Counted from the first letter of the stretch, positions 1,530-47,433 are shown. The stretch: DNA of 64,000 nt from an uncultured bacterium (GCA_964410905.1 CAYPIR010000003.1:15986-79985), one strand, 5' to 3'. The notes: generated by a model not told the origin, from the sequence alone. Made by a program: numbers and translations.

Positions 1530-1664
1530 AAATCCTTTTAGGTTTTTACACAGTTTATTCGATACGGCAAAAGTAATCAGCAAAAGTAATCACCGCATTT
1601 GACGCGTCGCGTTAAGCGCAATAAAATACACGCCTTTTAGAAAATCTACAACAATTGGAATAAA

Positions 1665-5168: not shown

Positions 5169-6866
<1,698 letters not shown>

Positions 6867-30430: not shown

Positions 30431-32032
30431 TTGCAAACATCAAATACACAGAATCTCCTCCTTTTTTTAGACCGCTACGCTTTTAGGATTTTTTCCGCGA
30501 TTTTTATTGCTGTAAGTCTAGCAATCCTTCCCGACTTCGGCATCAACGTCGACAGCGTCAAAAATTTCGACGAGGGCAGAATAAACCTTTCCGCCATCCT
30601 GCATTTTAGTATTACAAATACCGACCAAATGTTTTTGTCTCATCAAATTCACGGCTCATTATTTTTTATGTTATGCGAAGTTTCCCGCATTGTTTTTTCG
30701 GAATGGATTCCGTTTTTAAATCCAATTTCCGCGCGCCACTTGCCCTTGCCGTTTCTATTTTGTTTTTTTGCCAACAATTTTTATGCTTTCTTAAAAAAAC
30801 GCGTTTCTCACTCCGTAGCGTTTCTGGCGGGGACGATTCTTCTCACTATTCCTCCGGTTTTCGGGCATATTTTCCAAAATATAAAAGACATTCCTCTCAT
30901 TGTTTTTTTCTCATTTACTCTTATTTATTTCTTAAAATGGACTGAAACAAACTTCGCAAAAAACCGCTACCTTTTAATCGCTTCACTTTGCTTGGGACTA
31001 ACATTCTGCATTAAACTTTACGCCGCTTTAATTTTCCCGCTGCTTCTCCTTTATCTTATTTTTCTACACAACAGCAAACAAGAAACCTCTATTGTTTTCA
31101 AAAATATTAAATCAAAAAAGAATATATTTTTATTGTCTCTTTGCGCGATTTTTGTCATCGCTTTTACTGCCATTTTTTATATGCCGGCAATTTGGACGGT
31201 TGAGCAAAAACTCGCGCTCCTAAGCATAAATAAATTTCAGGCCGCGCAGCTATTGGGATATGGCACAAAAGGTTTTCAAATCACTCCCTTTCTAAGACTT
31301 TTTTTAATATTACCGTCATTATCTTTACTGTTTGGCATTTGGGGACTTATCAAAACGGCCGCTCAGCCTAAAAAAAATCTTTGGTCAACATTATCCCTTG
31401 TTTGGTTTTTTGTGGTTCTCTTGACGGCCTGCATGCCTATTTTCCCCGTATACAACGGCATCAGACTTTATATGGTTTTCATTGTCCCATTTTGTTTTTT
31501 TATCGCCGCGGGGATTATCGATGCCGCGCGTAGGCTTGAAAAGTTTTTTCCCAAAAGAAAATTTTTTCTAACGCCCATTTTGGGAACAATGGTTATCGGC
31601 TGTAATATTTGGGGAATTGTTGAAACCCACCCATATGAATTCACTTTCTTTAATGCTTTATCCGGCGGACTAAAAGGCGTGCAAGAAAAACGATTGGAAG
31701 GCGCGAGTGATTATTGGTTAGCCTCATTCAGAGAAGGCGTGATGTGGATAAACAAAAATGCCGCGAATAACTCCACTCTTTATTTAAGTAATCTGGATGG
31801 CGAGATAACGGCATCTGTCTACCCAAGAAGAAAAGACATTAGCATACGGCACGCGACAGAAAGACCTTTTAATAAGAATTCGTATCTTTTTCTTCCAGAC
31901 GGCTTATCAGTATGGATCAACGCGAAAGGCGTAGCCAAAGAGCGTGTATTTTCAGAGCTTTTAAATATGAAAAAAGTTCACAGAATAGAGCGGCAAGGCG
32001 GAAAGATTCTTGAAATTTATAGAAAGGACTAA
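30431..32032 (+). CDS. polytopic membrane protein, putative GT-C glycosyltransferase (ArnT/PMT-like)
   Basis: Multi-TM with a DE-containing first loop. TTG start after GGAGGAG. Confidence 0.45.
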   Translation: MQTSNTQNLLLFLDRYAFRIFSAIFIAVSLAILPDFGINVDSVKNFDEGRINLSAILHFSITNTDQMFLSHQIHGSLFFMLCEVSRIVFSEWIPFLNPISARHLPLPFLFCFFANNFYAFLKKRVSHSVAFLAGTILLTIPPVFGHIFQNIKDIPLIVFFSFTLIYFLKWTETNFAKNRYLLIASLCLGLTFCIKLYAALIFPLLLLYLIFLHNSKQETSIVFKNIKSKKNIFLLSLCAIFVIAFTAIFYMPAIWTVEQKLALLSINKFQAAQLLGYGTKGFQITPFLRLFLILPSLSLLFGIWGLIKTAAQPKKNLWSTLSLVWFFVVLLTACMPIFPVYNGIRLYMVFIVPFCFFIAAGIIDAARRLEKFFPKRKFFLTPILGTMVIGCNIWGIVETHPYEFTFFNALSGGLKGVQEKRLEGASDYWLASFREGVMWINKNAANNSTLYLSNLDGEITASVYPRRKDISIRHATERPFNKNSYLFLPDGLSVWINAKGVAKERVFSELLNMKKVHRIERQGGKILEIYRKD

Positions 32033-32039
32033 AGGCAAT

Positions 32040-33914
32040 TTATTTTGATGGAGAAAAACGTTTCGTTCTATCAAAAAACAAAACCCGCGCTTCGCGAATT
32101 GTTTTTACACTAATTGGTTTATTTATTTTTAAAGATATTTCAAATTGCCCATTTCGCGGCCATTGTTTCACGCGAACTCCATCGCCAGATTCAGTATGAA
32201 ATAAAATCTCCATAGGCGCATCAAAAAATCCTACGCCTCGAACAAACAAATCCCTCCCCTCAGCGCAAATGACTGCACGCTCGGCTCCTCCTCCCGAAGG
32301 TTCCAGAAAAATGCATTTGTCATTCTCATTTATTTTAGAAAATTTTTTGATTCTCGCGCGCTCCACAACAAGCGGTCCGACATCCCGCGAGACATCCCGC
32401 GTATTTTTTGTTTTTTCATTATGCGTAAAAACGACTTGCCCGTCTTCAATCGCGTAAGCCAGCCGTTCTAAAAAAATAGGCGCTTGCGAGGTTTCCGCGT
32501 CCTCCGGTTTGGTCTCTTCAAAAAGGCTGACGGACATTCCAGAATAAAATCTCACAGCATTTGTATAAACATGGAAAAGATATGTTGCTTCATCTTCGCT
32601 ATGGAAAAAATATTCTTTGGGATGCGCTGGATAATAATCCCCTGCCCAAACTAACCTTTTTCCGCCCTCATTTATACTTTTGGCATAATCCGCCGCGTCT
32701 TGAACAAATGTAGAATGATAGAAAGGGTCTTGAAACTTCAGCATTTCTCTGCCCGCGCGAACAAAAGAAATGCCGAGAATACAAACTACAATAAAAACCG
32801 TTATGGGATAAATCGGCTTCAAAATTTTACGTTTAAAAAAATCGGCCTCAAAAGTCTTTATTTTAATAATTCCAACTATCACAAAAAAATAAATAGCGGG
32901 ATATATCGGGAAAAAGAAGCGCGCCTCTTTGTGCTGCATAAAATGTCCGTGGAATAAAAACCATAAAAAAATCCAAACAATAAAAAACCTGCTATGAAAA
33001 CTTTGTTTTCTAAAACTTGCCGCGACCCCAATCATAGCTAAAACGCTCGCGAGTCCGCCAAATGACTTCCAAATAAACGCGTATCCTTCCCACCAAGTTT
33101 CTTGGTAACTATTTAAAATCCGCATATGCGAAAACGTTTCGGCAAAAAACAATATCGGCGCGAATGTCCAAGATGTTCTTCCGGAAATGCCATAAGCGAG
33201 AGTCGGAAAAATCACGGCAATAAGTGTGGCCAAGACGGCATAAAGAGAAATTACAAAAATATTTTTAACAGGAAATGCTCTTATATTTTTCCCCGTTATA
33301 AAAAACTCCCATATTTCCGTTAAGAAAAAAATACCGGGCATCAGCGCCATAAAATTATGTCTGGTTGCTATGCCGACTCCCGCCCACAAAATCGATATCC
33401 AAAAAAACAGTCCGCGGGTTGTCTTTTTCCATTTAAGATAATAGACAAAAGCCATCACAAGCAAAAAAACTCCTACAATGTCCTCTTTCGGAAACGGCGC
33501 GGAGTGTATAAGAAGCGGATTGAGCGCGAAAAGGGTTATGCCGAAAACCGCCCAAAATCTACTGAGTTGAAACCTGAATAATCTATAAACACCGCAAACG
33601 GCTCCTATAAAAAACGCGACCTCGGCAATGCGGGACAAAAGAAGCTGCAGGTATTGAATGCGCGTAATATTTTCTATGAAAAGAAATAACGCGTATAGGA
33701 GAGATAAAAATGGAGTGCTTCTGTAATAGTAAGGGAATTCATAACCGAAGAGGATTTGTCTGGCGTTTAAAAAAAGACCAAACGCATCAAAATTATCAAC
33801 GCGAAGAATTGCCGCGACCCAGACTAAATAAGAAAATAGAAAAAGCAAAACACCGATAAAGCCATAACAAATTATGTTCTGAAATCGTGAAGTGAATGAA
33901 ATCTTTAAATTCAT
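32040..33914 (-). CDS. polytopic membrane protein, putative GT-C glycosyltransferase (ArnT/PMT-like) with a C-terminal soluble domain
   Basis: ~12 TM, DNFD in the first loop, ~200-aa C-terminal periplasmic-type domain. ATG abuts the stop of the upstream GT2 gene. Confidence 0.5.
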   Translation of the reverse strand: MNLKISFTSRFQNIICYGFIGVLLFLFSYLVWVAAILRVDNFDAFGLFLNARQILFGYEFPYYYRSTPFLSLLYALFLFIENITRIQYLQLLLSRIAEVAFFIGAVCGVYRLFRFQLSRFWAVFGITLFALNPLLIHSAPFPKEDIVGVFLLVMAFVYYLKWKKTTRGLFFWISILWAGVGIATRHNFMALMPGIFFLTEIWEFFITGKNIRAFPVKNIFVISLYAVLATLIAVIFPTLAYGISGRTSWTFAPILFFAETFSHMRILNSYQETWWEGYAFIWKSFGGLASVLAMIGVAASFRKQSFHSRFFIVWIFLWFLFHGHFMQHKEARFFFPIYPAIYFFVIVGIIKIKTFEADFFKRKILKPIYPITVFIVVCILGISFVRAGREMLKFQDPFYHSTFVQDAADYAKSINEGGKRLVWAGDYYPAHPKEYFFHSEDEATYLFHVYTNAVRFYSGMSVSLFEETKPEDAETSQAPIFLERLAYAIEDGQVVFTHNEKTKNTRDVSRDVGPLVVERARIKKFSKINENDKCIFLEPSGGGAERAVICAEGRDLFVRGVGFFDAPMEILFHTESGDGVRVKQWPRNGQFEISLKINKPISVKTIREARVLFFDRTKRFSPSK

Positions 33915-34841
33915 TTATGACAAGTTCTGGTTTTCGTCGTCCGACTTTCGTAAAATCATCTCGGACAAAAGTCCAAAAAATATGCTTTGAAGTCCGCCCA
34001 AAAAAAGCGTGAATCCCAAAAACATATAAGGATAGTGCGGCGCGATTTCTCCGCCAAAACACTTAATTAAAAAAAGATGCCCATTTATTATGCCGCCGAT
34101 AATAAGAAACAGAAAACCGATGGCACTAAAAAATCTGGCCGGTTTTAGTCCATAACGCATTAAAAAAGAAACGGTTAGAAGGTCAACAAACATTCCCCAC
34201 GCCCGCGCCGCGCCGAATTTGGACTTACCGAATTTTCTAGCGCGATGTTCAACGGGAGACTCGGCAACAGAAAAACCTTTACGAAAAACAACCGCCGGAA
34301 TAAATCTATGCATCTCGCCATAGAGAGTAATGCTTTTGGCAACTTCCGCGCCGCACAGCTTTATGCCGCAATTAAAATCATGGAACTTAAGACCCGTCGC
34401 GAATCTTGTAAAAAAATTGAACAGCGCCGAAGATAAAATTTTATGCCAAGGATCGTTTCTCAACTTTCTCCAACCGTTAACGAAATCCACATTTTGCGAT
34501 TGTTTAGCGTCAAATAAATTTAAAAGTTCCATGGGGACGTCTTGCAAATCAGCGTCTAAAGTCGCGATATAATTACCGCGCGCCAGAGCAAATCCTCGAT
34601 TTAACGCCTCAGATTTCCCGCGCCGTGAACCAAACACTTCTACTTTAATTCGCGCATCATTTTTAGAAATATTTTTTAAAATAGAAACGCTTTTGTCCGA
34701 ACTGCCATCATCTATGAAAATAATTTCAAAGGAATAATTTCCAGACTCCATGGCTTGCTTGATTTCGTCCGTCAAAAGCTGAAGAGAGTCTTGTTCATTC
34801 AAGACAGGGACGATTATGGAGAATTCAATTTTAGATGTCAT
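33915..34841 (-). CDS. polyprenyl-phosphate sugar synthase, GT2 (GtrB/ArnC/DPM1-like)
   Basis: SIIVPVLNE, FIDDGSSD and DADLQD motifs, plus two C-terminal TM helices typical of GtrB/ArnC. Confidence 0.8.
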   Translation of the reverse strand: MTSKIEFSIIVPVLNEQDSLQLLTDEIKQAMESGNYSFEIIFIDDGSSDKSVSILKNISKNDARIKVEVFGSRRGKSEALNRGFALARGNYIATLDADLQDVPMELLNLFDAKQSQNVDFVNGWRKLRNDPWHKILSSALFNFFTRFATGLKFHDFNCGIKLCGAEVAKSITLYGEMHRFIPAVVFRKGFSVAESPVEHRARKFGKSKFGAARAWGMFVDLLTVSFLMRYGLKPARFFSAIGFLFLIIGGIINGHLFLIKCFGGEIAPHYPYMFLGFTLFLGGLQSIFFGLLSEMILRKSDDENQNLS

Positions 34842-34900: not shown

Positions 34901-37900
34901 CTATGCTGATTTTGATATAGCGCCAAGAGCGAGTGCCGATATTTGAAGATTAGTGAATAAAAGTTCTGACGCGGATTGAACCGTTTTAGGCAATTCTTTC
35001 GAAGTAATAAGTTTGTCAATAGCAGCAAGAAAAGCATATGAGCGCATATCGATAGACAAGTCATCCGCTACTATCAATGTTTCATTTCGCAAAAGAGTAG
35101 AAGCTAACTTTTCTAAATTAGGACGCGCGTCTCGCCGCGCGTCATAGACAAGCGTTCTGATAATTTCTCCTTTAATAAAACCGCTAAGCGCGTTCACATC
35201 ATCCGTAACAGAAACCTTTACTCCTTTCCCTTTATTTTGCTGCGATTTTCTGACCGCCATAACTTGTCTGACAAAATTCCGTTCAAGCTCCCGCGCTTCA
35301 ACTTTAGAAATATTAGGTATCAATATTTGTATTTCTATCCCAGGTTTATCGGCAAGTAGCTGCTCCATTATTCGCATCAAAGAGTCATTCAGCGACGGCT
35401 TTTCATCCATCGCGATTGAAATTTTTAGGACATCCGTTTCGCTCTTATTTAGTATTTCGCGTGTTATATCTTCCGCCACCGCATCGCGTTCTTTATCAAC
35501 CCAAGCACCCGTCACAACCTCAGAATAAAACTTTTGCCATCCATTAGACGACATCGCATCAACTTCGCTTTGTCTAAAAACTCCTTTAGCAAACACGACC
35601 GTTACTTCTTTGCCAACTTGAGTTCCTCCGCGGCTTTCTGAGCGCGATAACTCAACAAAGTCTTGTAATGCGGAAGCCATCATCATATTCCCCAAAAAAC
35701 TCATCATAGGAATTACTGTTTCATTAAATTCCGATACGGCTTCTTCCGCGCGATTTCGCATAATTTCCGATTTAGAAAAAATATCGTTTATTTGATCAAA
35801 CAAATCTTCTCTTTCAGGTTCAGTAGCGTGAAACTTATTTAGCAGCTGCACCGCCGTTTTGTTGCTGTCCCAATTCTTTCCCATATGTATTGAAGGAACG
35901 CTCTGGCTTGTGGGCTCAAGCAAGTTATGATTTTCTCCCACTATTACCAACCTTGCCACGCCCAAAATCGGCAAAAGTTCTCCTGCTGTTTCAAGTCCAA
36001 TAATATCCGCGTTTCCCATCGGCTCGCCCTCGGCAAGCCCATTAAATCTTTTGGATTTTGCTCTATCTCCAATTCTGCGAAACTTTATTTTGCTGTCAGA
36101 AAGTCCATATTTTCCTGCTGTTTTCAGCAAAAATTCTTCTACCATTTTACCGCCATGCCTAACTCCCATAATTAAAAGAGGCTTTTGTTCTTTGGGAAAT
36201 TTTGCATACGCTTGAAAAATTTTTTCTATTTCTACATTGTTGGGGCTTGAGGCGACAATAATTATTCTGTCCGCGGAAACTCCCATTATTTTTCGAATTT
36301 CCTCATGTTTCTCATCTGAAATTTTTTGAGGCAAAACATATTTATATGGATCATGAGGGAGAATCAAACGCTCGTCATGAGACTTTCCAAAAAAAGGCGC
36401 ATTGCTAAAACTAATAGCTATTTCATTTTTCTTTCTCGCTGCGCTTTTAGATCTTATGTCATATCCAAGAAAACTTTCTTTAATTAGCCTTTCATTGACC
36501 TCTCCGCCATAAGTCAGAATAACTTGTTTTTCGCTAAGTCCTGTGGCCTTGATAAATCCACGCGTGGAGTTTATCGCCGCGACTTCGGGTATATCAAAAG
36601 TAATTTTAATGTTCTCTTCGTCAAGTCGTTTTATGATTTGAAATCCATGTCGCTTGATATTTTTAAAATCTACATCTTTTCGCATCGCCAGCCCCAGCAC
36701 TTTAGCGACTTCGATTGGATACGCGGCAAACCAATCTCTAATTTGCTTCATATCAAAACCCGCGTAATGAAGCGAATCTACTGCGTCAGCAAAACTAGGC
36801 TCTTTTAAAGAGGCTTCAAAGGAGTTGCTAAACTCTCTCGGCGGATTATTTCTCAAAGCTTCTATAAGAGCTGTTCTCCCCAGCGAATTTCGCGCACCAA
36901 GCCTGGCAATAGTGTTTACCGCCTCGGAAGACCGCAAAAATTTTTCAAAAATATTTTTCATAGAATCTTTTATATAATCCGCAACAAATTGCCCTTCTTC
37001 CAAAGAATCCAACCAAAGTTGTTCTATTTCTGTTTGCAAATCGTTGCCGTTATTTATTCTTTCTTCACTACGGCTTACATCGCCTCGCTCGCCATTAAAA
37101 TATTTATTCCATATGTCAGAGCGAACAAAAAGCAAGGCGCTATACTTGCCCCCAAAGGGCTTGGCGATATCAAAGCCATCTATTTTCGCAGCCACGGCAC
37201 TTTCATCACCTAACTTGTCATAAAATTCATCCAAAACAAACGCAAAATCAGAAATGCCTGTTGTTAAAATCATCGCAGGCTTAAGCCGCATAATTTCTTC
37301 TAAAAATGACAGACCATAGTCATACGCAATATTCATAACAACAATAGGATTTTTCCATTCCTCTGGATTGACTTCCCCAGAATCAATCCCCTCGCCAAGA
37401 TATTTCACTATTTGAAACTGAGAGGCTTCCAAACCATTATTTTTAAGATTAGCGACAAGAGATTTTCGTTTCCTCGCGCCCGGCTCTACATATAAAACTT
37501 TTTTAGGATTATTAAACGCAAGCCCCAATTTCCCGTCATCTGCTCCAAAATCAACTACAGAAAAATTATTTGTAAGCGATGCTATTTTTTGAATTAACGA
37601 TAAAGCAATATGCGTTGACGCAATTGGCGTTTCAATGACATCTCCTTCGCGATCTGTTTCCTCTATGCCTTCATCCTTTTCTCTTCCAAGGACTTCTTTA
37701 ACGGCATAATCGGAAACTCCAAATCCGGGAGACTCCAGCGAGATAAATTTCATGTGCGGGTATTTTCCATGCAGATTCTCAGCAATCGCTCTTGTCTCTC
37801 GTTGTTCTCTATAATAGACAATATCACCATGCCGTCTAAATAACACTACGCGACGACCTTCTAAATCTCCTTCGATAAATTCCAGCGGAATGATTTTCAT

Positions 37901-40900
37901 ATTGTCCTGAGCGGGCGGGTAAAAATCAGCAGCAACATTTTCAAATTTTTCTCGAGCAAGGTTTAAAAAATCATTCATAGGGTTTTCAGTATCTTCGCGA
38001 AGAACTTCCTCAAATAATTTTTGTCTTGTAGATTGAACCAAACCTTTAGAACCAAAAATATTACGCTCAGAATAATTAGAATTTTCAACCGACTTCCTCG
38101 CTTGTCTAATTTCATGTTTTGCTTCGTCTATATTCTCAAATGGTGAAATGTCCAGCATTTCGCTTCGGCCATCATCGCGTTGTATATTTTTAAAATATTT
38201 TTCTAAAGCGTCGCGGAATTCATCTTTATACCGAGCCGGCGCGTAAATCGGCGTCGAATATGAGCCATTGATTAGTTTTACAGGAATGTTTTGTTCACGC
38301 AAAAATTCAAATATTCCTTTTATCTGTTTCTCTATGTTTCCTTTTGAAGGAAGATTAACCACATCCGTTGTCCATTGCCCGTCCCTAGCAAAAAAATCCA
38401 TATCAATCGAGACAATAACTCCTTGCTTTAGCCCCTCAGAATGCTTTGCTATGACAGATTTCCAATCACTTGTCATTGCCGCAAAATCTTTTTCATCGCC
38501 TAAAAGACTTCTGCCTTCGCTTGGGTAAAACCAAAATGCTTCACCGACATCGCCTTCCTTCAACAAAGATGTCACCCAATTAGACAAATCAATGCCGTTA
38601 ATTAATTTAGGAGAATTATCGCTGTGATAATCAAAAAGAAGCATGGGCAGCCCTTTAGAAATTATTCCGTTTTGAACGCCATAATGAATTTGGTTGTAGG
38701 CTCCATCGTGGTTACTCGTAATTTCAAAGATGTTGTTGTTCAATTCACTGGCTCGTGTTTCACTTCTAACAGTGCTAGTCAACATAGAATCGTCTGTTTC
38801 CCGCAACGCTAACAATATCGTTGCTTTTGCCGCGATTTTCATTAATGGAAATTCTACATTTTTAAAGTCATCGACCGCCTGTCGTATGTTCTCTTGTATT
38901 TGTTCTGAATGGTTAAGCGTGGAGTTTATTTGATTAAAAAAATCTCTTTCATTTACGACTTGGACAGCGTTAAACGCACCTAAAATATTTATTGCGCTTC
39001 GGTTATTTGTCCAATTTCCGTCAAAGAAAAGCGTGGGAACCTCTTGGCTCATAGGCTCAAACAAATTACGATTTTCTCCCACTATTGCCAAATCCGCCAC
39101 CGCAAAAAAAGATCTCAACTCACCTTGCGTGTTCAAAATAACTATGTCCGCGTCGCCCATCGGGACCTCTTCGGCAGTTCCATTAAAAGACCCACCTGGT
39201 AACATATCTTTTTCAGATCTGACGCGGATCTTATTTCTTCCGAGCTCAATTTTGCCCATATCCCCTTTAAGAATATCATTAACCAAAGTAGCCTTAGTAT
39301 TGCGCATGCCGACAATTAAAAGTGGTCGTTCGTTTTCGGGATACTCGCTATACGCTTTAATGGTTTTTTTGAGCTCTTCATTTTTCGGGCTTGACAGTAT
39401 TATTATTTTTCTGTTCGGTAAAACTTCCATTTTCTCACGAAGAATTTTGCGCTCCTCAGCCGAAATTTTTTGAGGCAAGGCATATTTATAAGGGTCATAA
39501 GGAATAAACATCGAGGGGAGAATACTAATAACTCTTTCTCCGTCATGAAACGCCGCGACAATTTCGTTCGCGGGATTAAGTTTCCCTCTAATAAATTCTC
39601 TAACTCTAAAATCGGGGAAATTATCTTTTAACATTTTTATGGAAACCTCTCTGTCAGCCAACAAAACAGCTTTTCTCGCATCTATGTTTGCCGCGTTCAA
39701 AAAGCCACGAATGGCGTTCATTGATGCGGCTTCATACACTTGAAATAAAATTGTTTTACTAGTTTTATTCAAACGCTTTGCCAAACTTCTCTCATCGCGC
39801 AATATCTCTATTACCTTTTTCTTGTCTCCTTTGAAAAACAAAAGAAATTCAGTAATTTGGCTTATTGTCTGACGTAACGCGCCGTTTAAATTTGTCTCAC
39901 TGCTGCGGTTTAAAATCTCCTCGCCAACCAAAATTTTTAAGATTTCCCAAGCCTTAGAAAAAAGATCAAAGCCAATGTCTCCATCTATAAAAAGCAAAAA
40001 CTCCGCCACATCAAATGGATTTTGTTTAAAAATTTTTTGAATATCAAAGCCCAAAACTTCTATGACTTTTCCCATTGTTTTAGAAAAAGAAAGAGAATAT
40101 AAAAAATTTTTCACTTCTAATGGAGCTTTAATGAAAGCGGCTTGAATTGTATCAGCGTCCAAAACTTCCGTATTATCAAGGTAAGTAAAGCGCGGCTTCT
40201 TACGTGACGTTTCATGAGAGAATGAAAACAACGCTTTTAAAAATACATCGCGAGATGTCTTAATTGATTCCCTAACAGTCTCCAAACCTAAGACCTTGTG
40301 TTTCGTAAGCTCGCGTAAAGCGTCAAAAACTAATAAACCATAGGAAAAATTATCAACGGAAATGCTTTCCACCATTTTAAAAAATAAAGCCGTATCCGCA
40401 CCTAATATTTCGCATAAAAAATCCGCCCCCAAAATATCCGCTAATTCTTTTAAGGTTTCTACATCTGCCGTCTTTATTTCCGGAAAATCCTTTGCCATAT
40501 ACATGGAAGTTGCTGCTATCAAATCTTCTACGGTTTTCCGCGTTTCACTTCGTGGGCGTTGAGCTTTTTCTAAGTATTTTTGCGCGACATCTTTTCGGAC
40601 AAACAAAACAGCTCGATAATTTCCTTGATTTGGTATTTCAAAAAAGTGTCCGCCTGAAGCAATAATTTGCGGCTGATATGAAGTCGCGAGCATTTCCTTT
40701 TGGGCGTCTTTGGCAAAAAGACTTCCAAAAATATCTTCGTATCCAAGATGAGAAAAATATTCGTGTCCCGTTGTAAGAACCATCGCGGGCTGAAGTTTTT
40801 TTATTGTTTCCAAATATCCGCCGCCGTAATCATAGGCAACATTCATTACGACAAATGCATCTTTCCAATCTTTCGGATTAATATCGTCTTCCAAAGACGC

Positions 40901-43396
40901 CCAAAGCGATTCAATAACTTTATATTTTGAGTTGTCCCAACTGTTGCTCTTTAAATTACATTCGATAATTTTTCTTTTACTTTCATCTTTTTCGACAAAC
41001 AAAACTTTGGGTGCGTCTTTAAAAACAAGCCCCAGTTTGCCGTCATCCGAACCAAAATCAACCATAGGCAAGTCTTTAACTTGAGGCATGACTTCTTGAA
41101 TAATAGAAAGTGCGGCATGCGTTGTCGCGGGAGGCGTCAAAACGCCTCGTTCAGTGCTTTCAAAAAATTCTGGATATTCCAATGAAACGAATATGAATTG
41201 TGAAAACCTATTTTTAATTTCACGGACCATGTCGGCAGCGTCATTACTATCGCGGTAATAAATAACATTTCCGTGCCTGCGAAAAATAAGCCCAAGCCGT
41301 CCGTCTATAGTCGCTTCAATAAATTCCAGCGGGAATATTTCCCCTTCAATGTTTGCCGTTGGGTAGAAATCTATGGCAGCATCTTGGAATTTTTGCCGCG
41401 CCCGCGCGAGCAAATCCGCCATCGGGCTGTTCTTGTCTATTTTTATAATATCTTCAACAAAAGCCCGTCTCTTTGCTGGCGGCAAATCTGAAAAAATTTT
41501 GTTTGCAAGTCCCTCGCCCAAAGTCCTTCCGAGCATAATATGTCGAATTAGGTCTTCCGGCGAAGCGTCCGTAACCCATTCATTAGCATTGTCTGCGGTC
41601 CCCTTAACGCCTGACATTGCCTCTCTTACTTCAGAGCGGATAAATTCAGCTGTGTCCGCATCAAAACCTTCTGTGCCGCTTAAAACAGGAGAAAATCTGA
41701 CAAAAGAATCGGAGAGATTGTCATTCCGCGCGTTGTTTTTCAACATTGAAGAATCCAAAAGATTACTCTCTTGGGTTCCGATCTCCTTATCGGGACTAGT
41801 CAATGCTCGCTGCGTTGACACAAATAGTCGCTGCTCAATCGCCGCGTCCAATTTAAATTCGTCGTCGTGTAATGGCAAGTCGGTTTTACCGTTTCTATTC
41901 GTTGCTCCAAGCGTCATCGTTTTTATGTAATTATCATTATTAGTTTTGCTCGTTATGCGCGGCAAAATTCGAACATATGATAAATTTTTATTTTTAAAAA
42001 TATTTTCTAATCCCGCTGTATGAAAACCTCCTGTTATTAAAATTGCGCTCTGAATATTTAAATCCTTTATCTTCGCGAACATTTGTTCAAACATCACATC
42101 GTCACGTTTTATAGCAACTTCATAAAACTTTAACGCAAGCCTAACCGCGTAAGGCAAATCATTTTCAGCCAAAACACCCCGAGCTTCTTGATATTCCTCA
42201 TGCGTAAGCTCCAGTTCCAACAAGCTTTTAAGAAGTAGATATTTTTTGTACTGTGCTACTATTCTTTGCTCGTCATGAGTTTTTGAAAGCGCCGTCAAAA
42301 TTATCTCGTTTATTCTTTTTGTTTCTCTCAAAAGCTCTTCAGCTCGAATTTCTTGGCCCAAAAGCCTTGCCCCTAAAAGTTTTACAAGCGCCGGATAATC
42401 CTGAAATTCAAACCCTAAATCCTGTGTTTCATTTAAAAACTTCTCAAGAAACGAGCGAATATCTTTTTCTTCTTCAAGAAAATTCTTAAAAGCCGCTTGA
42501 TAATCTTCACTGAAATTATTTTCAGCCAGCCATGTGATAAGTTTGGTTTGCTCTTTTTTTATTGTCTCCCGTGTTCCCTCGGTTTGTTTCTCTAATTCTT
42601 GCAGTTTGAAAAATCTCACAAGCTGCGGAAAATCATGTTGTTCGCGAGCGTTTGATAAATCTATATTTAAAATATCAAGAGCTGTTTTTTTCAGAAAACC
42701 AAGCCGTGAAATAAAATCTTTTTGTATCTCAGATTGAAAAATCCATTCACGGAAAAAATTTTTAAAATTAGGGTTGGTGTTTTTTGCAACTTCTTGTTTA
42801 AGACTTTGTTTTAATTTAAGCAAAATTTTTGAAGCTTCTTTTTTGTGAGAGTAAACCTCTCTAAAAAGCTTTAATTCTTCAAGATAAAGTTCTCTATTCT
42901 CTACGCCAAAAACCTCCGCGCCGGACTTATCAGAAAACAGAAATCTCTCAACGCCTCCGACAATTCCCTTTTCGGTTAATTTATCTATGAGTTTTAAATT
43001 TGCATCTTCTTCGTTGAAAAATCGGAGCAATTCTTTTTTCTGTTTCCCAACTCCGCCTTCTACAAAAATAGTTTTTATTCCATATTCTTTTTCAAGATGT
43101 CGCAAAATTTGCTCTTGATTTTTCTGCGCCTCGACACTTCCGTGCGCGTCTTCTATGTGAACAATAGAAATTGGATAAGAAAATTTCGCTTCATTTTCCG
43201 GTTGAGAAATATACATGTCTTTGATACTTCCAACGCAAAGAGGTATTTCAATTTTAGAAATTATTGAGGGAGCGCGATTTTGGCTAAAATCTATGGCGGG
43301 CGCGGCAAACGCAACATTTGTCCAAAAGAAAACGATGGACATAAAAATAGCGATATTTTGCCGCGCTAACAGTTTATATTTTTTACATTTAGACAT
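34901..43396 (-). CDS. 2831-aa N-terminally anchored giant multidomain protein. It has a domain shared with the 964-aa protein, two methyltransferase-like domains, two WaaA/KdtA-like GT-B domains, and an arginase/deacetylase-like middle segment.
   Basis: Single ORF with an ATG at 43396. Internal duplication aa 658-1530 vs 1807-2580. Motifs DTQGEL..ADLAIVGEN and IIILSSPKNEE resemble WaaA. Confidence 0.75.
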   Translation of the reverse strand: MSKCKKYKLLARQNIAIFMSIVFFWTNVAFAAPAIDFSQNRAPSIISKIEIPLCVGSIKDMYISQPENEAKFSYPISIVHIEDAHGSVEAQKNQEQILRHLEKEYGIKTIFVEGGVGKQKKELLRFFNEEDANLKLIDKLTEKGIVGGVERFLFSDKSGAEVFGVENRELYLEELKLFREVYSHKKEASKILLKLKQSLKQEVAKNTNPNFKNFFREWIFQSEIQKDFISRLGFLKKTALDILNIDLSNAREQHDFPQLVRFFKLQELEKQTEGTRETIKKEQTKLITWLAENNFSEDYQAAFKNFLEEEKDIRSFLEKFLNETQDLGFEFQDYPALVKLLGARLLGQEIRAEELLRETKRINEIILTALSKTHDEQRIVAQYKKYLLLKSLLELELTHEEYQEARGVLAENDLPYAVRLALKFYEVAIKRDDVMFEQMFAKIKDLNIQSAILITGGFHTAGLENIFKNKNLSYVRILPRITSKTNNDNYIKTMTLGATNRNGKTDLPLHDDEFKLDAAIEQRLFVSTQRALTSPDKEIGTQESNLLDSSMLKNNARNDNLSDSFVRFSPVLSGTEGFDADTAEFIRSEVREAMSGVKGTADNANEWVTDASPEDLIRHIMLGRTLGEGLANKIFSDLPPAKRRAFVEDIIKIDKNSPMADLLARARQKFQDAAIDFYPTANIEGEIFPLEFIEATIDGRLGLIFRRHGNVIYYRDSNDAADMVREIKNRFSQFIFVSLEYPEFFESTERGVLTPPATTHAALSIIQEVMPQVKDLPMVDFGSDDGKLGLVFKDAPKVLFVEKDESKRKIIECNLKSNSWDNSKYKVIESLWASLEDDINPKDWKDAFVVMNVAYDYGGGYLETIKKLQPAMVLTTGHEYFSHLGYEDIFGSLFAKDAQKEMLATSYQPQIIASGGHFFEIPNQGNYRAVLFVRKDVAQKYLEKAQRPRSETRKTVEDLIAATSMYMAKDFPEIKTADVETLKELADILGADFLCEILGADTALFFKMVESISVDNFSYGLLVFDALRELTKHKVLGLETVRESIKTSRDVFLKALFSFSHETSRKKPRFTYLDNTEVLDADTIQAAFIKAPLEVKNFLYSLSFSKTMGKVIEVLGFDIQKIFKQNPFDVAEFLLFIDGDIGFDLFSKAWEILKILVGEEILNRSSETNLNGALRQTISQITEFLLFFKGDKKKVIEILRDERSLAKRLNKTSKTILFQVYEAASMNAIRGFLNAANIDARKAVLLADREVSIKMLKDNFPDFRVREFIRGKLNPANEIVAAFHDGERVISILPSMFIPYDPYKYALPQKISAEERKILREKMEVLPNRKIIILSSPKNEELKKTIKAYSEYPENERPLLIVGMRNTKATLVNDILKGDMGKIELGRNKIRVRSEKDMLPGGSFNGTAEEVPMGDADIVILNTQGELRSFFAVADLAIVGENRNLFEPMSQEVPTLFFDGNWTNNRSAINILGAFNAVQVVNERDFFNQINSTLNHSEQIQENIRQAVDDFKNVEFPLMKIAAKATILLALRETDDSMLTSTVRSETRASELNNNIFEITSNHDGAYNQIHYGVQNGIISKGLPMLLFDYHSDNSPKLINGIDLSNWVTSLLKEGDVGEAFWFYPSEGRSLLGDEKDFAAMTSDWKSVIAKHSEGLKQGVIVSIDMDFFARDGQWTTDVVNLPSKGNIEKQIKGIFEFLREQNIPVKLINGSYSTPIYAPARYKDEFRDALEKYFKNIQRDDGRSEMLDISPFENIDEAKHEIRQARKSVENSNYSERNIFGSKGLVQSTRQKLFEEVLREDTENPMNDFLNLAREKFENVAADFYPPAQDNMKIIPLEFIEGDLEGRRVVLFRRHGDIVYYREQRETRAIAENLHGKYPHMKFISLESPGFGVSDYAVKEVLGREKDEGIEETDREGDVIETPIASTHIALSLIQKIASLTNNFSVVDFGADDGKLGLAFNNPKKVLYVEPGARKRKSLVANLKNNGLEASQFQIVKYLGEGIDSGEVNPEEWKNPIVVMNIAYDYGLSFLEEIMRLKPAMILTTGISDFAFVLDEFYDKLGDESAVAAKIDGFDIAKPFGGKYSALLFVRSDIWNKYFNGERGDVSRSEERINNGNDLQTEIEQLWLDSLEEGQFVADYIKDSMKNIFEKFLRSSEAVNTIARLGARNSLGRTALIEALRNNPPREFSNSFEASLKEPSFADAVDSLHYAGFDMKQIRDWFAAYPIEVAKVLGLAMRKDVDFKNIKRHGFQIIKRLDEENIKITFDIPEVAAINSTRGFIKATGLSEKQVILTYGGEVNERLIKESFLGYDIRSKSAARKKNEIAISFSNAPFFGKSHDERLILPHDPYKYVLPQKISDEKHEEIRKIMGVSADRIIIVASSPNNVEIEKIFQAYAKFPKEQKPLLIMGVRHGGKMVEEFLLKTAGKYGLSDSKIKFRRIGDRAKSKRFNGLAEGEPMGNADIIGLETAGELLPILGVARLVIVGENHNLLEPTSQSVPSIHMGKNWDSNKTAVQLLNKFHATEPEREDLFDQINDIFSKSEIMRNRAEEAVSEFNETVIPMMSFLGNMMMASALQDFVELSRSESRGGTQVGKEVTVVFAKGVFRQSEVDAMSSNGWQKFYSEVVTGAWVDKERDAVAEDITREILNKSETDVLKISIAMDEKPSLNDSLMRIMEQLLADKPGIEIQILIPNISKVEARELERNFVRQVMAVRKSQQNKGKGVKVSVTDDVNALSGFIKGEIIRTLVYDARRDARPNLEKLASTLLRNETLIVADDLSIDMRSYAFLAAIDKLITSKELPKTVQSASELLFTNLQISALALGAISKSA

Positions 43397-43617
43397 AAAA
43401 ATCCCTTCTTACTAAAATTTAACATTTACTATGACTTTTTTCAAATTACTAAACATATATTTTATTAAAAATAAATAGCAATTTATAGCATAATATAACT
43501 AGCTGCCGGCGCATACTGAAATTTCCTAAAATGATTTTAAAACTTTACGAAAAGCCCGCCAGTGATATAATTCGGGGGCTGTTTTACAAATCAACCTTTT
43601 TAACGGAGGATTTTATC

Positions 43618-44199
43618 GTGGCTTTCTCAATTTCTGAACTTCCATACGCAATTGACGCGCTCGCGCCGCACATCAGCAAAGAAACCCTTGAGTTTCATTA
43701 CGGCAAACATCACAACGCTTATGTCGCAAACCTCAATAAACTAACTGAAGGGAAACCTGAGGCGGAAAAATCTCTTGAAGATTTAATCAAAACCGCAAAG
43801 GGCGCGATTTTCAATAACGCGGCGCAGATTTACAATCACACATTTTATTGGAATTCGCTAAAACCAAACGGCGGCGGCGAACCGACAGGCGCGCTTTTAG
43901 ATGCCATCAATAAGTCCTTTGATAGTTTCGCGGATTTTAAAACACTTTTTACGCAAGCGGCATTAGGTCTTTTTGGTTCTGGCTGGGTTTGGCTAGTTAA
44001 AGACGAGGACGGAACTCTCGGCATTGAATCTTTGCAAAACGCGGGAAATCCTCTTCAAGACGGTCAAACGCCTATTCTTGTAATCGATGTTTGGGAGCAT
44101 GCCTATTACATCGACTACAGAAACGCCCGGGCAAAATATGTCGAGTCGTTTTGGAATATTGTAAATTGGGATTTTGTGGCAGAACAGTTTGCTAAGTAG
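43618..44199 (+). CDS. sod: Fe/Mn superoxide dismutase
   Basis: ELPYAIDALAPHIS...HHxxY..., DVWEHAYY. GTG start with GGAGGA Shine-Dalgarno. The track start at 43531 is an upstream extension. Confidence 0.9.
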   Translation: MAFSISELPYAIDALAPHISKETLEFHYGKHHNAYVANLNKLTEGKPEAEKSLEDLIKTAKGAIFNNAAQIYNHTFYWNSLKPNGGGEPTGALLDAINKSFDSFADFKTLFTQAALGLFGSGWVWLVKDEDGTLGIESLQNAGNPLQDGQTPILVIDVWEHAYYIDYRNARAKYVESFWNIVNWDFVAEQFAK

Positions 44200-44223: not shown

Positions 44224-44251
44224 GCCAGACAGTTTAATGTCTGGCTTTTTT
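44224..44251 (+). terminator. rho-independent terminator after sod
   Basis: gccagac-agtttaat-gtctggc followed by T6. Confidence 0.65.
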
Positions 44252-44273
44252 ATTTATTAAAAACTTGCGAGAA

Positions 44274-44672
44274 TTGTAAAAATCAATAATTTCGTGAACA
44301 GATTTAATTCTAAAGTTATCCTGCGCATTGTTATTTAAACGTCGCAGGATCCAGGTGTTGAGCGCCTCTGGATTCTGCAACGCCACTACGTTTCGTGCAG
44401 AATGACCAGATTGTCTCGCTTTTGTAGGCGGAATGACATAACGGACAAGTGCCGAAGGCGCTTCGCCGTTTCGTGCCAATCCATTGGGGATTGGTGCAGT
44501 CAACCGTAAGGTTGCTGAAAAGACGCTACGGCGAAGCCGAGCGCTTGCCCTGTATTTGCGTATCGGACGCAAATGCGGTACTTCCTGTATCGATGCATTG
44601 GGCATCGATGCGGAATGACGTAAAAATAAAAAACCTTCAACAAATCTGTCTACGAAATTATTGGCTTTTACA
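44274..44672. repeat. MITE-like element, copy B, ~400 bp with ~30-bp terminal inverted repeats
   Basis: Left end aattgtaaaaatcaataatttcgtgaacagattt. Right end aaatctgtctacgaaattattggcttttacaat. Confidence 0.6.
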
Positions 44673-44757
44673 ATAAAAAACGACATCAATGACAAACTGC
44701 GCCTCAAAAAGCGAGGAGGTTTGAAATCGATGCCGTTTTTTTGTTTTTCTTGGCTAC

Positions 44758-47433
44758 TTAAAAATCATACCTCACGGTTGCGTAATAGGTGTGGCTTATA
44801 TAACGATCGCGAATTTCCATATCCCAATTACCCGTGAGAGTGAAATTCCCTTTTGATAAAAAGGCAATTTCCGCTCCGAGTAAAAGTCCGCTTTTAGACG
44901 GTTTCGCGCCGCGCACAAGAAAGGAATTTCCGCCGCCAGCAAAACTCGCGCGCGTCTCGTATCGCTTCCCAATATAATCATAAAGCCAAGCGCCTTTGAT
45001 TGACGGAACAAATGTTCCAACTTCTGTTTTGATTTGGTATTGCAGTTTAAGCCCAAGCGTTTGTTCTAATGTGTGATACCCCTTCCCTTTAACCGATAAA
45101 TCCAAATCGCCCGCGCCATTTTCGTCATATCCATGAAGCCGCAAATAACTATATTCCAGTCCGACAAATGGCGTAATCTCCAAATGCTTAAGCTCCGCCG
45201 ATGTCATCGTATAACCTAGTTCAAACTTTGAACTATATTCCTGCCCGCTATGTTCCGCTTTTGCCACGCGGTCAAGCGCGCTTGTTATTGCTATTTCTCG
45301 GCGGCTCTTATATTCGTCCCATGTAAAAGCTATCATGCTGTCGGCATACCAAAAATTCTCGCCGTAGTTTCTGACCGCCGCTCTCTGGTTGGCTCCATAA
45401 GCCCTGCCGGCGCACAAATCAAGCGAGTCATAGCTGCCATACAAACTAAAACTGTAACTATTAATTTGTTCCGTGGGATTTCCCGGCCGTTTTGAGTCAA
45501 CATCCGCGTAACCATATCCCGCCGCCGCGCCGACTCTAAAGTGGCTGTCCAGCTGCCTATCTATACCGACCGTTGTCCCATAGGAGTTTGACGTAAAACC
45601 CTCAATGCCTTTTCGCGTCTTCTGCTCCATATGATTCCCTAAGCCTTGCAGCCAGACACCAAGCCCGGTTATCGTCTCGCCTGATGAAATTCCGCTTTGG
45701 AAAAATCCGTGCCGCACGCTGCCCAAGCGATTACTAACTGAACGCATATGATTCCCCGTCAGCATTTTGCTTCCGCGCGCGATTCCTGAACTTATATCCG
45801 GCATCATTGTCGAAAGCGCTTTTTGCACCTCTTCAGAACTCATCCCATCTAAAGCATTAAGCACATCCAGCATATCGCCTTGGGCGTTTGGCATATTGTC
45901 TAAAACTTCGCCAACCATTCTTGAGTTTTCATCCTTTCCAGCATCGCTCGCGAATCCGCCCGCGCGGCTGAGCATAAGACTCAATATCCCATCATGAATG
46001 CTTTCAGTCCCTGTATACCGGTCTGAGAAAAGCGTCAGCAAACCATCAAAATCTAATGTGCCGCCCGCGCTCAAAATATCTACTGTCGTTCCGTTAGCAT
46101 AATATCCCGATGCAAGCGAGACATCGATGTCCCCGCTAACATCTATATCACCGTCCGCAACAACAGAACCATAATCATTTTCCGCTATCGTGAGCGCAAG
46201 CGTAGAACCGGCAGCTTGGTCAAAATCCCCGCCGATAAGTAACTGCGTTGTCCCGAGTTCAAGAGTGCCAGCATCCAATAAAACATTGCCTGTCCCAAGC
46301 GCCTGGGAATTTCCAACAATTACTGTTCCGGCGCTAACTGTCGTCCCGCCTTCATATGTATTCGCTCCAGAAATAGTAAGCGTGCCATCTCCTTCTTTTG
46401 TTAAACTACCGTCCCCGCTTATAACCCCAGAAAAAATTGTATCCTCGTCATTTCCTCCGACTGTCAAATCAGCTGTTCCTAAATCTACATCGCCAGCTCC
46501 GCTTAACCCTTGCACAGTTTGATCATAATCATTCAAGTCGAACGAAGCGCCAGATTGAACTGCTAAACCAGAACTAGTGGAAATTATATCCGCAGCTCCT
46601 GCTTGTAATGTTCCAGCACTAACTGTCGTTCCGCCTGTATATGAATTAGCTCCAGAAAGAGTGAGTGTTCCTGTCCCAGTCTTTGTCAAACTTCCTGAAC
46701 CGCTTAACCCCCCACTCATTGCAGCCACACTTTCATTGCCTATAGTCCCGCCATTAGCTTCCAACGTCCATGCACCAGCGTAACTATCTCCTGTTAAAAT
46801 CAACCTTCCGCCGTTAAGAGTTCTGCTAGTCGAATATAAAGTATCAGCAAATATTGATAATTCGCCCCCAGTATTGATAGAGATAACGTTTGAAAATAAA
46901 CTTCCACCCTCAGCAATAGTTACCGTCCCTTCATTATTCACAGTTAGGTTGCCTATAAGATTTCCGCCAGAGTTGACAATAACAGCACCTTCCGGCGATA
47001 TAACAATTCCTCCATATGAGGCAACATCTCCACCGTCTGGATTGGAACCGCCACTAATTGTAAATATTCCGTGATCAAAGTTAAATACACCCAGTGTAAT
47101 CCAGTTTCCACCTGCTAAAGTGAGATCCGCAAGAGTCGAATTAACATTGGCGCCATTGACATGCGCCGAACCAATAGAAATATCGGCATCTTGGTCGATG
47201 GTAATATCATCGTCATGTGTAGGCACCGTTGAGGTGTCCCAGTTAGAAGAGTCAGTCCACGTGGAACCATCTCCGCCACCAGTCCAAGTTACAGTGGCAG
47301 CAAATGAAACTGGCGAGAAAATAGAAAGGAGAAAAATGAGAGAAGTAAGAAGAGTTAAACTGCGGAAGAAAAACGAACGCGGATAACTATTTGTTTGTTT
47401 GTTTGTTTGTTTGTTTGTTTGTTTGTTTAGCAT
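44758..47433 (-). CDS. autotransporter (type Va) outer-membrane protein
   Basis: Signal peptide. G/T-rich passenger with TGTGTLTLSGANSYTGGTTVSAGTL repeats. C-terminal beta-barrel ending ...YATVRYDF. Confidence 0.85.
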   Translation of the reverse strand: MLNKQTNKQTNKQTNSYPRSFFFRSLTLLTSLIFLLSIFSPVSFAATVTWTGGGDGSTWTDSSNWDTSTVPTHDDDITIDQDADISIGSAHVNGANVNSTLADLTLAGGNWITLGVFNFDHGIFTISGGSNPDGGDVASYGGIVISPEGAVIVNSGGNLIGNLTVNNEGTVTIAEGGSLFSNVISINTGGELSIFADTLYSTSRTLNGGRLILTGDSYAGAWTLEANGGTIGNESVAAMSGGLSGSGSLTKTGTGTLTLSGANSYTGGTTVSAGTLQAGAADIISTSSGLAVQSGASFDLNDYDQTVQGLSGAGDVDLGTADLTVGGNDEDTIFSGVISGDGSLTKEGDGTLTISGANTYEGGTTVSAGTVIVGNSQALGTGNVLLDAGTLELGTTQLLIGGDFDQAAGSTLALTIAENDYGSVVADGDIDVSGDIDVSLASGYYANGTTVDILSAGGTLDFDGLLTLFSDRYTGTESIHDGILSLMLSRAGGFASDAGKDENSRMVGEVLDNMPNAQGDMLDVLNALDGMSSEEVQKALSTMMPDISSGIARGSKMLTGNHMRSVSNRLGSVRHGFFQSGISSGETITGLGVWLQGLGNHMEQKTRKGIEGFTSNSYGTTVGIDRQLDSHFRVGAAAGYGYADVDSKRPGNPTEQINSYSFSLYGSYDSLDLCAGRAYGANQRAAVRNYGENFWYADSMIAFTWDEYKSRREIAITSALDRVAKAEHSGQEYSSKFELGYTMTSAELKHLEITPFVGLEYSYLRLHGYDENGAGDLDLSVKGKGYHTLEQTLGLKLQYQIKTEVGTFVPSIKGAWLYDYIGKRYETRASFAGGGNSFLVRGAKPSKSGLLLGAEIAFLSKGNFTLTGNWDMEIRDRYISHTYYATVRYDF
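47390..47428 (-). repeat. tetranucleotide repeat, (TTTG)9 on the plus strand and (AAAC)9 in the coding sense, within codons 3-14 of the autotransporter
   Basis: tttgtttgtttg... encodes NKQTNKQTNKQTN immediately after ATG-CTA. Confidence 0.9.

Follow-up and report, generated by a model that had tools for sequence, protein, structure and literature searches.

We have analysed a 64,000-nucleotide (nt) stretch of DNA from an uncultured bacterium (GCA_964410905.1, CAYPIR010000003.1:15986-79985; hereafter the window), which carries an open reading frame (ORF) encoding a protein of 2831 amino acids (aa). This protein is a member of a large, paralogue-rich, phylum-specific Omnitrophota family of more than 300 proteins, in which a signal-peptide-like N-terminus and a conserved N-terminal domain (the N-domain) head a variable series of enzyme modules, and a short peptide recurs in the linkers between them. 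At slightly better than even confidence, we lean towards reading it as a Sec-exported polyprotein that is divided at these linker marks into individual enzymes, with its own N-domain as a possible protease.

On this reading, family members would consist of a Sec-type signal peptide, a hydrolase of about 450 aa with the TIKI/TraB/erythromycin-esterase fold, and a variable string of cytoplasmic-type enzyme modules, with a linker peptide separating the modules (R[S/A]ExR in this lineage, [A/G]xSLG in others). The unfolded protein would be exported through Sec and the exported chain cleaved at the linker marks, which for the 2831-aa protein would give seven products: the N-domain, a methyltransferase-like module (A1), an accessory region with a GT30-like glycosyltransferase (X1-B1), a peptide-arginase-like module (M), second copies of the methyltransferase-like and GT30-like units (A2 and x2-B2), and a C-terminal domain. 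The built-in N-domain would be the leading candidate for the protease, acting in cis or on paralogues, because it is the sole universal element of the family and its catalytic set is intact. The gene, its duplication, the folds of the N-domain and of B, the family, and the linker motif with its statistics and placement are established here, whereas export, cleavage and the identity of the protease are inferences.

Family distribution and linker peptides

A search with the whole protein returned 160 matches, all confined to the first ~17% of the query. The organism names on these records were Omnitrophota or Omnitrophica, save for two metagenome-assembled genomes (MAGs) labelled Verrucomicrobiae and Elusimicrobiota. 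Matching family proteins are 1600-4900 aa long, and the N-domain was N-terminal in 120 of the 120 matches listed. When one genome per GTDB species was scanned with a five-sequence N-domain alignment, 305 N-domain loci were confirmed by tblastn, with up to 7 in a genome; the GTDB scan with a single N-domain sequence gave no confirmed match. Eighty of the 305 loci were retrieved, and their organism-named records were all Omnitrophota, bar one MAG labelled Planctomycetia. The Pfam cargo behind the N-domain differs from protein to protein and includes phosphoenolpyruvate (PEP)-utilising enzymes, phosphoglucomutase, SecA-like domains, kinases, methyltransferases, Nudix domains and glutamate dehydrogenase. 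All the traits by which the family was defined are found in the 2831-aa protein, namely a signal-peptide-like N-terminus, the N-domain, one or more downstream enzyme modules and the linker motif. At one locus (L003, 6605-16310, + strand), the family ORF ends after 573 aa and motif-rich ORFs go on downstream on the same strand, with 10 motifs over three fragments, which suggests that frameshifts or assembly errors have split a long polyprotein gene.

The tripeptide RSE occurs seven times in the 2831-aa protein, against 0.9 expected, and six of these occurrences stand at module boundaries (aa 587, 949, 1544, 1744, 2109 and 2585), five of the six in the form RSExR. Among 120 relatives, no tripeptide outside the N-domain was more enriched than RSE (386 observed, 113 expected), which was followed by Arg at position +4 in 70% of cases. 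In 36 members, RSE.R was observed 236 times against 3.2 expected and RAExR 25 times against 4 expected, Ala thus replacing Ser in ~10% of sites. The sites are spaced 100-700 aa apart, have linker-like and unconserved flanks, and always begin shortly past the N-domain; none of the 53 sites listed for five proteins lies inside a best Pfam stretch. In the AlphaFold2 (AF2) model of module B1, the last five residues, which reach into the RSETR at aa 1544, have a predicted local distance difference test score (pLDDT) below 50. The clearest example of linker punctuation is a relative of 4164 aa (P0016), in which aa 2331-3848 hold five kinase-type domains, one per interval, between six consecutive RSExR sites ~250-300 aa apart (Pfam matches to Pkinase, PK_Tyr_Ser-Thr, RIO1, ABC1 and APH).

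The motif was found in no other ORF of the window, and its density across the 80 retrieved loci was 1.1-1.4 per 1000 aa in family ORFs and ~0.2 elsewhere. Most of the sites outside family ORFs were in large ORFs at or near locus edges, and such ORFs are probably parts (tails) of adjacent family genes. Codons at the motif sites differ: TCN and AGY triplets both occur for Ser, and CGN and AGA both occur for Arg. Since these codon families differ between sites, selection acts on the peptide, and an origin of the motif at the DNA level, as a repeat or a recombination scar, is ruled out.

Family members that lack RSExR carry instead [A/G]xSLG, at the same spacing and with the same first position (38 observed, about 1 expected; loci L013, L022, L024, L027, L028, L033, L034, L036, L050 and L065). 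Among 121 proteins, 46 had the RSExR type, 9 the [AG]xSLG type and none both. A single motif type was used across all paralogues of a genome, and in 56 of 58 cases a protein and its nearest neighbour by N-domain had the same type. A third candidate, G[AS]RLA, was detected weakly among members with neither motif.

The modules between the marks behave as cassettes. Both duplicated units of the 2831-aa protein end exactly at the motif, module M and the C-terminal domain are flanked by it both here and in the relative P0002, and the GT30-like module B also exists as stand-alone proteins of ~330 aa. A divergently oriented Fe/Mn superoxide dismutase (SOD) gene adjoins the 2831-aa gene, and this neighbour is conserved in three other Omnitrophota genomes (L014/L081, which encodes P0002; L006; L002). 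Of the SOD-adjacent genes in those genomes, two share only the N-domain with the 2831-aa protein and P0002 shares M and the C-terminal domain as well, which suggests that the SOD locus is a conserved site with rapid cassette exchange. Coordinates of all features are collected in Table 1.

The pentapeptide might alternatively be a recognition or structural mark on one long, uncut multi-enzyme chain, serving as a docking site for the N-domain or a chaperone while the chain is exported, as a site of Ser modification, or as a linker cap. Ser is present in both motif types, and there are conceivable modifying activities: PMT_2-type and GT-C-like genes adjoin the 2831-aa gene, which raises the possibility of Ser O-glycosylation, and the many kinase domains of some members raise that of Ser phosphorylation. 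However, the sites in which Ala takes the place of Ser oppose an obligatory Ser modification, and the strict inter-domain placement of the motif, the shuffling of cassettes and the existence of stand-alone modules fit release better than tethering. We regard an uncut, marked chain as improbable.

Table 1. Features of the 2831-aa gene and its neighbourhood. Positions are nt of the window, except for the last row, where positions are those of the named loci.
Feature	Position	Strand	Description
Whole ORF, 2831 aa and stop codon	34901..43396	-	ATG start, frame uninterrupted
Sec-type signal-peptide-like N-terminus, aa 1-31	43304..43396	-	MSKCKKYKLLARQN, hydrophobic stretch, then AFA|AP
Family-defining N-domain, aa 50-495	41912..43249	-	TIKI/TraB/erythromycin-esterase/ChaN-like fold
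RSEVR, aa 587-591	41624..41638	-	First linker motif after N-domain
Module A1, aa 638-948	40553..41485	-	~100-aa pre-domain, then Rossmann-like part with VDFGSDDGKLGL and MNVAYDYG
RSETR, aa 949-953	40538..40552	-	Between A1 and X1-B1
X1, aa 954-1197	39806..40537	-	Accessory region preceding B1; C-terminal part common to some B-family relatives
Module B1, aa 1198-1543	38768..39805	-	Compact GT-B fold, closest to GT30/WaaA
RSETR, aa 1544-1548	38753..38767	-	After B1
Module M, aa 1549-1743	38168..38752	-	Arginase-fold, UPF0489/peptide-arginase-like; FDYHSDN, SIDMDFF
RSEML (degenerate), aa 1744-1748	38153..38167	-	Counterpart of RSEAR (aa 2394) in P0002
Module A2, aa 1786-2108	37073..38041	-	Duplicate of A1
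RSEER, aa 2109-2113	37058..37072	-	After A2
Short x2 region and module B2, aa 2114-2584	35645..37057	-	B2 is aa 2247-2584, nt 35645-36658
RSESR, aa 2585-2589	35630..35644	-	After B2
C-terminal domain, aa 2590-2831	34904..35629	-	Also extreme C-terminus of P0002 and P0004
GT2 glycosyltransferase	33915..34841	-	Starts 59 nt downstream of the 2831-aa ORF, same strand
624-aa multi-pass membrane protein	32040..33914	-	Immediately after the GT2 gene; GT-C-like by eye
Fe/Mn superoxide dismutase	43531..44199	+	Divergent upstream neighbour of the 2831-aa ORF
964-aa paralogue (p964)	14024..16918	-	Signal peptide, N-domain, ~480-aa tail without linker motif
SOD at relatives' loci	L081 7241-7918; L006 9086-9664; L002 8760-9344		

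N-domain, predicted export and candidate proteases

No Pfam family matched the N-domain and a 23-sequence profile found no member in the Protein Data Bank (PDB), and its superfamily was revealed by fold comparison alone. In the AF2 model (pLDDT 87), the domain consists of an alpha/beta core (aa 56-166 and 450-480) and a helical insert of ~280 aa, and comparison of this model with known folds showed the TIKI/TraB/erythromycin esterase/ChaN superfamily's parallel beta-sheet core. Residues H85, Q91, E113, G114, G164, E166, Y171, R431, G456, G457, H459, P479 and Y490 are invariant in the 23-sequence alignment. Active enzymes of the TIKI superfamily share a 2His/2Glu set, arranged as E-x-H, E, H (PMC6254334), and D83-x-H85, E113 and H459 of the N-domain fit this set in order, with conservation in 20-23 of the 23 sequences; the two His and E113 are invariant and D83 is present in 20, the first acid being Asp, not Glu. 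The order is also that of the MARTX toxin effector RRSP (E3900-x-H3902, E3930 and H4030, corresponding to D83-x-H85, E113 and H459). Because residues of the 2His/2Glu type are conserved in the same order, the N-domain is probably an active hydrolase, and its sequence would suit a peptidase or an esterase alike. Compared with TIKI, TraB/PrgY, erythromycin esterase and ChaN proteins, the N-domain has the same core fold and the same order and identity of catalytic residues (acid-x-His, Glu, His), but lacks a sequence-level match to any Pfam or PDB member, adds the large helical insertion, and has a constant place, immediately after a signal peptide at the start of very long multi-enzyme proteins.

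The window contains one further N-domain protein, the 964-aa paralogue p964. A first-pass annotation of the stretch had noticed a domain of ~440 aa common to the two proteins, and BLASTP aligns aa 9-495 of the 2831-aa protein with aa 2-485 of p964 at 25% identity (E 1.7e-35). The tail of p964 gave no Pfam match and contains no linker motif, and p964 could be a family member with one cargo or else a processing enzyme that stands alone. Its gene has a GH1 glycosidase gene (12632-13957) and a Wzx-type flippase gene (17434-18759) as neighbours.

Signal-peptide calls were made by eye and from hydropathy. A Kyte-Doolittle scan found a single hydrophobic segment in the whole 2831-aa protein, at aa 15-33 and followed by AFA|AP, and the N-terminus looks more like a cleavable Sec signal peptide than like an anchor. 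N-termini across the family have canonical n-, h- and c-regions with AxA-type sites, and frequently end in WAAP. The first-pass annotation had allowed for either an anchor or a signal sequence, and the second of these is favoured here. It had also drawn attention to a topological puzzle, in that nucleotide-sugar-dependent domains would be placed outside the cytoplasm; this puzzle is real and extends to the whole family. Speculatively, the puzzle would be resolved if the enzymes, once released, did their work in host or prey cells, which the proposed host-dependent lifestyle of Omnitrophota would fit (PMC10066038).

Several points weigh against a self-cleaving, exported polyprotein. The TIKI superfamily includes esterases, a haem binder and inactive members, and we know of no TIKI-family enzyme reported to cut at R[S/A]ExR. 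Cleavage itself is deduced from sequence patterns, and about 50 of the 121 members have neither linker motif, with only the weak G[AS]RLA candidate besides. The paralogue p964 retains every catalytic residue, yet the motif is absent from its tail. No column of the N-domain alignment was found that separates RSExR-type from [AG]xSLG-type members, and therefore the N-domain is not favoured as the determinant of specificity. The predicted export comes from inspection and hydropathy rather than from a trained predictor, and export of enzymes that depend on S-adenosylmethionine (SAM), CMP-sugars, ATP or PEP has no demonstrated rationale.

Alternatively, the R[S/A]ExR sites might be cut by a separate, genome-encoded protease, such as a periplasmic Arg-specific serine protease, while the N-domain has another role, for example as an esterase or an anchor, or in targeting or quality control. 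That the motif type is uniform across the paralogues of a genome would be explained by a single enzyme acting in trans, and the lack of specificity-determining columns between N-domains of the two motif types agrees with this. Trypsin- and kexin-like enzymes are suited to Arg-containing sites, and the motif Arg would suit them here. West-Roberts et al. (2023, bioRxiv 10.1101/2023.11.21.568195) proposed that C39 and S8 peptidases cut giant Omnitrophota proteins. On the other hand, all members have just one element in common, the N-domain with its intact hydrolase signature; the first motif is invariably found close behind it, and no candidate protease acting in trans was identified; there is a U32 peptidase gene in the window (21310-23136), and no evidence ties it to the linker motif. 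We judge a separate protease to be unlikely.

Duplicated modules and the remaining cargo

Two internal duplications were detected by BLASTP, one between aa 638-953 and aa 1786-2113 (37% identity, E 5e-63) and the other between aa 1198-1550 and aa 2247-2591 (36% identity, E 3e-60). These agree with the first-pass description of one supermodule repeated in the same order as a second. When aa 638-1550 were compared by phmmer with 1.84 billion representative proteins, 109 matches were obtained, about 105 of them to module B and 2 to module A.

Besides the 2831-aa protein, the only carriers of module A among these representatives were P0121 and P0163. Neither A1 nor A2 matched any Pfam or NCBIfam model, even at E values up to 10. 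A four-sequence A profile (A3) matched the RsmD-like methyltransferase Rv2966c (3p9n) at E 0.004, over 58 residues that cover motif I only, and on this marginal match a methyltransferase-like function for module A is plausible. Thus the Rossmann-type, motif-I-like stretch of the first-pass annotation has a marginal counterpart in 3p9n; its assignment to FkbM (Methyltransf_21) is unsupported, as no family model matched. P0121 (882 aa) and P0163 (1203 aa; annotated as Omnitrophota) have a signal-peptide-like N-terminus that is followed not by the TIKI-like domain but by an LP-containing motif (LPEPG…MV in P0121), and both end in a conserved GGIDLT…PxTDLxxFLG region. Similar N-termini were seen in several B-module proteins, and proteins of the P0121/P0163 type look like a second family of secreted multidomain proteins.

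Module B was matched by NCBIfam WaaA (PRK05749) models at aa 1319-1512 (E 2e-10), with 16-40 bits against cut-offs of 363-590, and no Pfam match, to Glycos_transf_N or any other family, was obtained for either copy or for 23 family members. A 23-sequence B profile matched only WaaA in the PDB (4bfc, E 1.7e-7; 2xci, E 1.8e-4). This profile alignment covers the donor-binding C-terminal half, where RP.L..G.R, GEL and RNLFEP fall on the CMP-Kdo-binding motifs of WaaA (PRHxxR, GEL and GGHNxLEP). Residues P161, G228, E229, N247 and E250 are invariant in the 23 sequences, which include both copies, and B2 retains every invariant residue of the family. The AF2 model of B1 has the two-Rossmann fold of GT-B enzymes, with WaaA as its best structural match. 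The WaaA/KdtA-like GT-B assignment of the first-pass annotation therefore stands at the level of profile and structure. Module B is a complete but compact GT-B domain, nearest to GT30, and represents a distinct small family that current models miss. Three relatives (P0135, P0153 and P0222) align only from positions 374-480 of the aa 638-1550 query onward.

The N-terminal acceptor domain of WaaA has a conserved SxGE motif. At the equivalent first strand-helix, the B consensus is ExASLNAxxG, not SxGE, and the N-terminal half of B is shortened. Because the nucleotide-binding residues of WaaA are kept and the acceptor-side SxGE is absent, the two GT30-like modules are probably active transferases of a CMP-sugar-type donor. 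WaaA/KdtA works on the cytoplasmic side of the membrane, where it transfers Kdo (3-deoxy-D-manno-octulosonic acid) from CMP-Kdo to lipid A precursors, and the predicted export speaks against this canonical location for B. The site of action of the modules might lie beyond the cytoplasm of the producer, such as in a host or prey cell. In sum of likeness and difference, B has in common with WaaA/KdtA the GT-B fold and the donor-site PR…, GEL and (H/R)NxxEP residues, but scores far under the thresholds of all WaaA models and sits within multidomain proteins of predicted export, in a small family of its own with about 105 representatives. The definition of this GT30-related glycosyltransferase family is one outcome of the analysis.

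These assignments bear on a reading that takes up the megasynthase view of the first-pass annotation. In it, the protein would be an uncleaved, membrane-anchored megasynthase whose tandem methyltransferase-like and GT30-like modules cooperate, along with the adjacent GT2 and GT-C-like genes, in making or modifying a polysaccharide or glycolipid. The conserved donor sites of both B copies and the motif-I-like stretch of A are in its favour, as are a GT2 gene and a multi-pass membrane protein gene beginning 59 nt downstream and a PMT_2 gene nearby; the syntenic relative P0002 moreover carries a Bac_transf sugar-phosphate transferase and methyltransferase domains. However, the linker pentapeptide parts A from B in both copies (RSETR at aa 949, RSEER at aa 2109), and no listed relative among the 1.84 billion representatives combines A and B outside the 2831-aa protein. 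In addition, the cleavable-looking N-terminus would put the bulk of the chain outside the cytoplasm, away from nucleotide sugars, the same N-domain heads cargo unrelated to glycans (kinases, PEP-utilising enzymes, glutamate dehydrogenase and SecA-like domains), and the syntenic locus of P0002 lacks the GT2/GT-C neighbours. With A and B divided by the motif, unrelated cargo behind the same N-domain and mostly different modules at the SOD loci, separable cargo modules are favoured over a coupled synthase. The megasynthase proposal is thereby weakened, and we consider it quite unlikely.

Between the two supermodules lies module M, whose profile (A5) matched a peptide arginase (8brp, E 9.7e-6). 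The UPF0489 family (PF12640) matched at E 0.048 in the 2831-aa protein and at 1e-6 in P0002, both at or below the Pfam cut-off. Module M is 43% identical to aa 2182-2399 of P0002, and the residues of its DxHxD and SxDxD motifs (D41, H43, D45, S115, D117 and D119) are invariant in three aligned copies. Both motifs had been picked out in the first-pass annotation, and they correspond to the metal-binding motifs of the arginase fold. The C-terminal domain had no match in the PDB, and an iterative search of the retrieved set found just P0002 and P0004. A Pfam search with the whole 2831-aa protein and with eight segments of it gave nothing significant.

Related systems and genomic surroundings

The nearest functional analogues are the MARTX toxins of Vibrio and its relatives, the likeness being in the possible mode of working and not in descent. 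MARTX proteins are likewise very large secreted chains with several unrelated enzyme or effector modules; their module content is swapped between strains, as the cargo varies here, and one of their effectors, RRSP, shares its TIKI fold with the N-domain. A built-in protease frees MARTX modules at short inter-domain linker sites, whereas cleavage of the 2831-aa protein is only inferred. RTX repeats, an inositol hexakisphosphate (InsP6)-activated cysteine protease domain and a type I secretion signal were not detected here with Pfam and NCBIfam; the 2831-aa protein has instead a Sec signal peptide, an N-terminal TIKI-like domain and other linker motifs. The Omnitrophota family also differs in having several paralogues per genome and cargo that resembles ordinary metabolic and biosynthetic enzymes. 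Polymorphic toxin and effector systems similarly combine a conserved N-terminal part with rapidly exchanged downstream modules at a conserved locus, but here the cargo is many enzymes in series, not one toxin tip.

Within the phylum, giant and long multi-enzyme proteins have been described, and the reports on them suggest cleavage by C39 or S8 peptidases (West-Roberts et al., 2023; 2026 preprint, 10.64898/2026.06.07.730766). The giant proteins share with the present family the signal-peptide or membrane-associated topology predictions and the tiling of one chain with unrelated enzyme Pfam domains, but are at least 10,000 aa long, often with many transmembrane helices, against 2831 aa and one hydrophobic segment here. 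Term searches of these texts turned up neither a TIKI-like N-domain in common nor a linker motif that recurs, and literature searches on the motif strings, and on Omnitrophota with polyprotein, found nothing relevant.

Whether the long multi-enzyme proteins of Omnitrophota are single chains or are cut, and why enzymes with cytoplasmic cofactors bear export signals, is a standing puzzle, and the present locus gives testable handles on it: an N-domain hydrolase whose catalytic residues can be named, candidate cleavage sites at exact positions, motif types that exclude each other between genomes, and syntenic loci with differing cargo. If the cleavage is real, it would show how ultra-small bacteria that are thought to be host-dependent package and deploy their enzymes. 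Giant ORFs could then be divided into functional products for annotation and structure prediction, and a sequence-specific protease with its tag could become a tool. There is a substantial chance that the proposed exported polyprotein with punctuated linkers marks something more general. In its widest form, which we offer tentatively and hold to be rather doubtful, Omnitrophota would follow a genome-wide polyprotein strategy. Several to many Sec-exported precursors per genome would each be headed by a TIKI-fold endopeptidase that cuts at a linker code particular to the lineage (R[S/A]ExR, [A/G]xSLG, perhaps more) and releases normally cytoplasmic enzymes; the cassettes would be rapidly exchanged at conserved loci, and the enzymes would act outside the producer's cytoplasm, most plausibly in or on host or prey cells. 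If true, such a strategy would parallel in bacteria the polyproteins of viruses, and would give ultra-small bacteria that depend on hosts a new logic of effector delivery.

The 2831-aa ORF is a real Omnitrophota gene. A 145-kb NCBI contig encodes an identical protein (P0001), and the first-pass description of one uninterrupted frame was confirmed over its 8.5 kb, from an ATG start. That the ORF might be an assembly artefact or a decaying pseudogene, with an architecture of no biological meaning, is suggested by its source in a metagenome-derived assembly and by the sole database copy being an identical protein, probably from the same assembly. Collapsed repeats, which the first-pass annotation had named as a danger, are ruled out because the internal copies have diverged to 36-37% identity. 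The frame is also open throughout, two independent AF2 models (N-domain and B1) are confident, the catalytic residues are conserved, and three other genomes contain syntenic relatives of the same layout, all of which makes an artefact or pseudogene extremely improbable.

The content of the window is that of an ordinary chromosome of a diderm bacterium, with an arginine-biosynthesis operon and genes for IMPDH, alanine racemase, an H+-pyrophosphatase, two cpn60 proteins, an autotransporter and an AsmA-like protein. Neither immunity genes nor genes of a dedicated secretion system were observed adjoining the polyprotein gene. The GT2 gene directly downstream may be co-transcribed with the 2831-aa ORF, and the 624-aa multi-pass protein encoded after it had no Pfam match. 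Together, two GT2 genes, a PMT_2-type GT-C gene and the gene for the 624-aa protein occupy 30431-32032 (+), 32040-33914 (-), 33915-34841 (-) and 558-1583 (-), and three of these four glycosylation-type or membrane genes are directly beside the polyprotein gene; a periplasmic glycosylation system acting on exported proteins might be encoded there. On the other side, just past the SOD gene, are a 157-aa ORF without a family match (44234-44707, -) and the autotransporter, a protein of 891 aa with PATR passenger repeats (44758-47433, -). The two cpn60/GroEL-family genes are adjacent to each other, at 5175-6866 (+) and 7271-8899 (+), and a groES-sized ORF was not noted between them.

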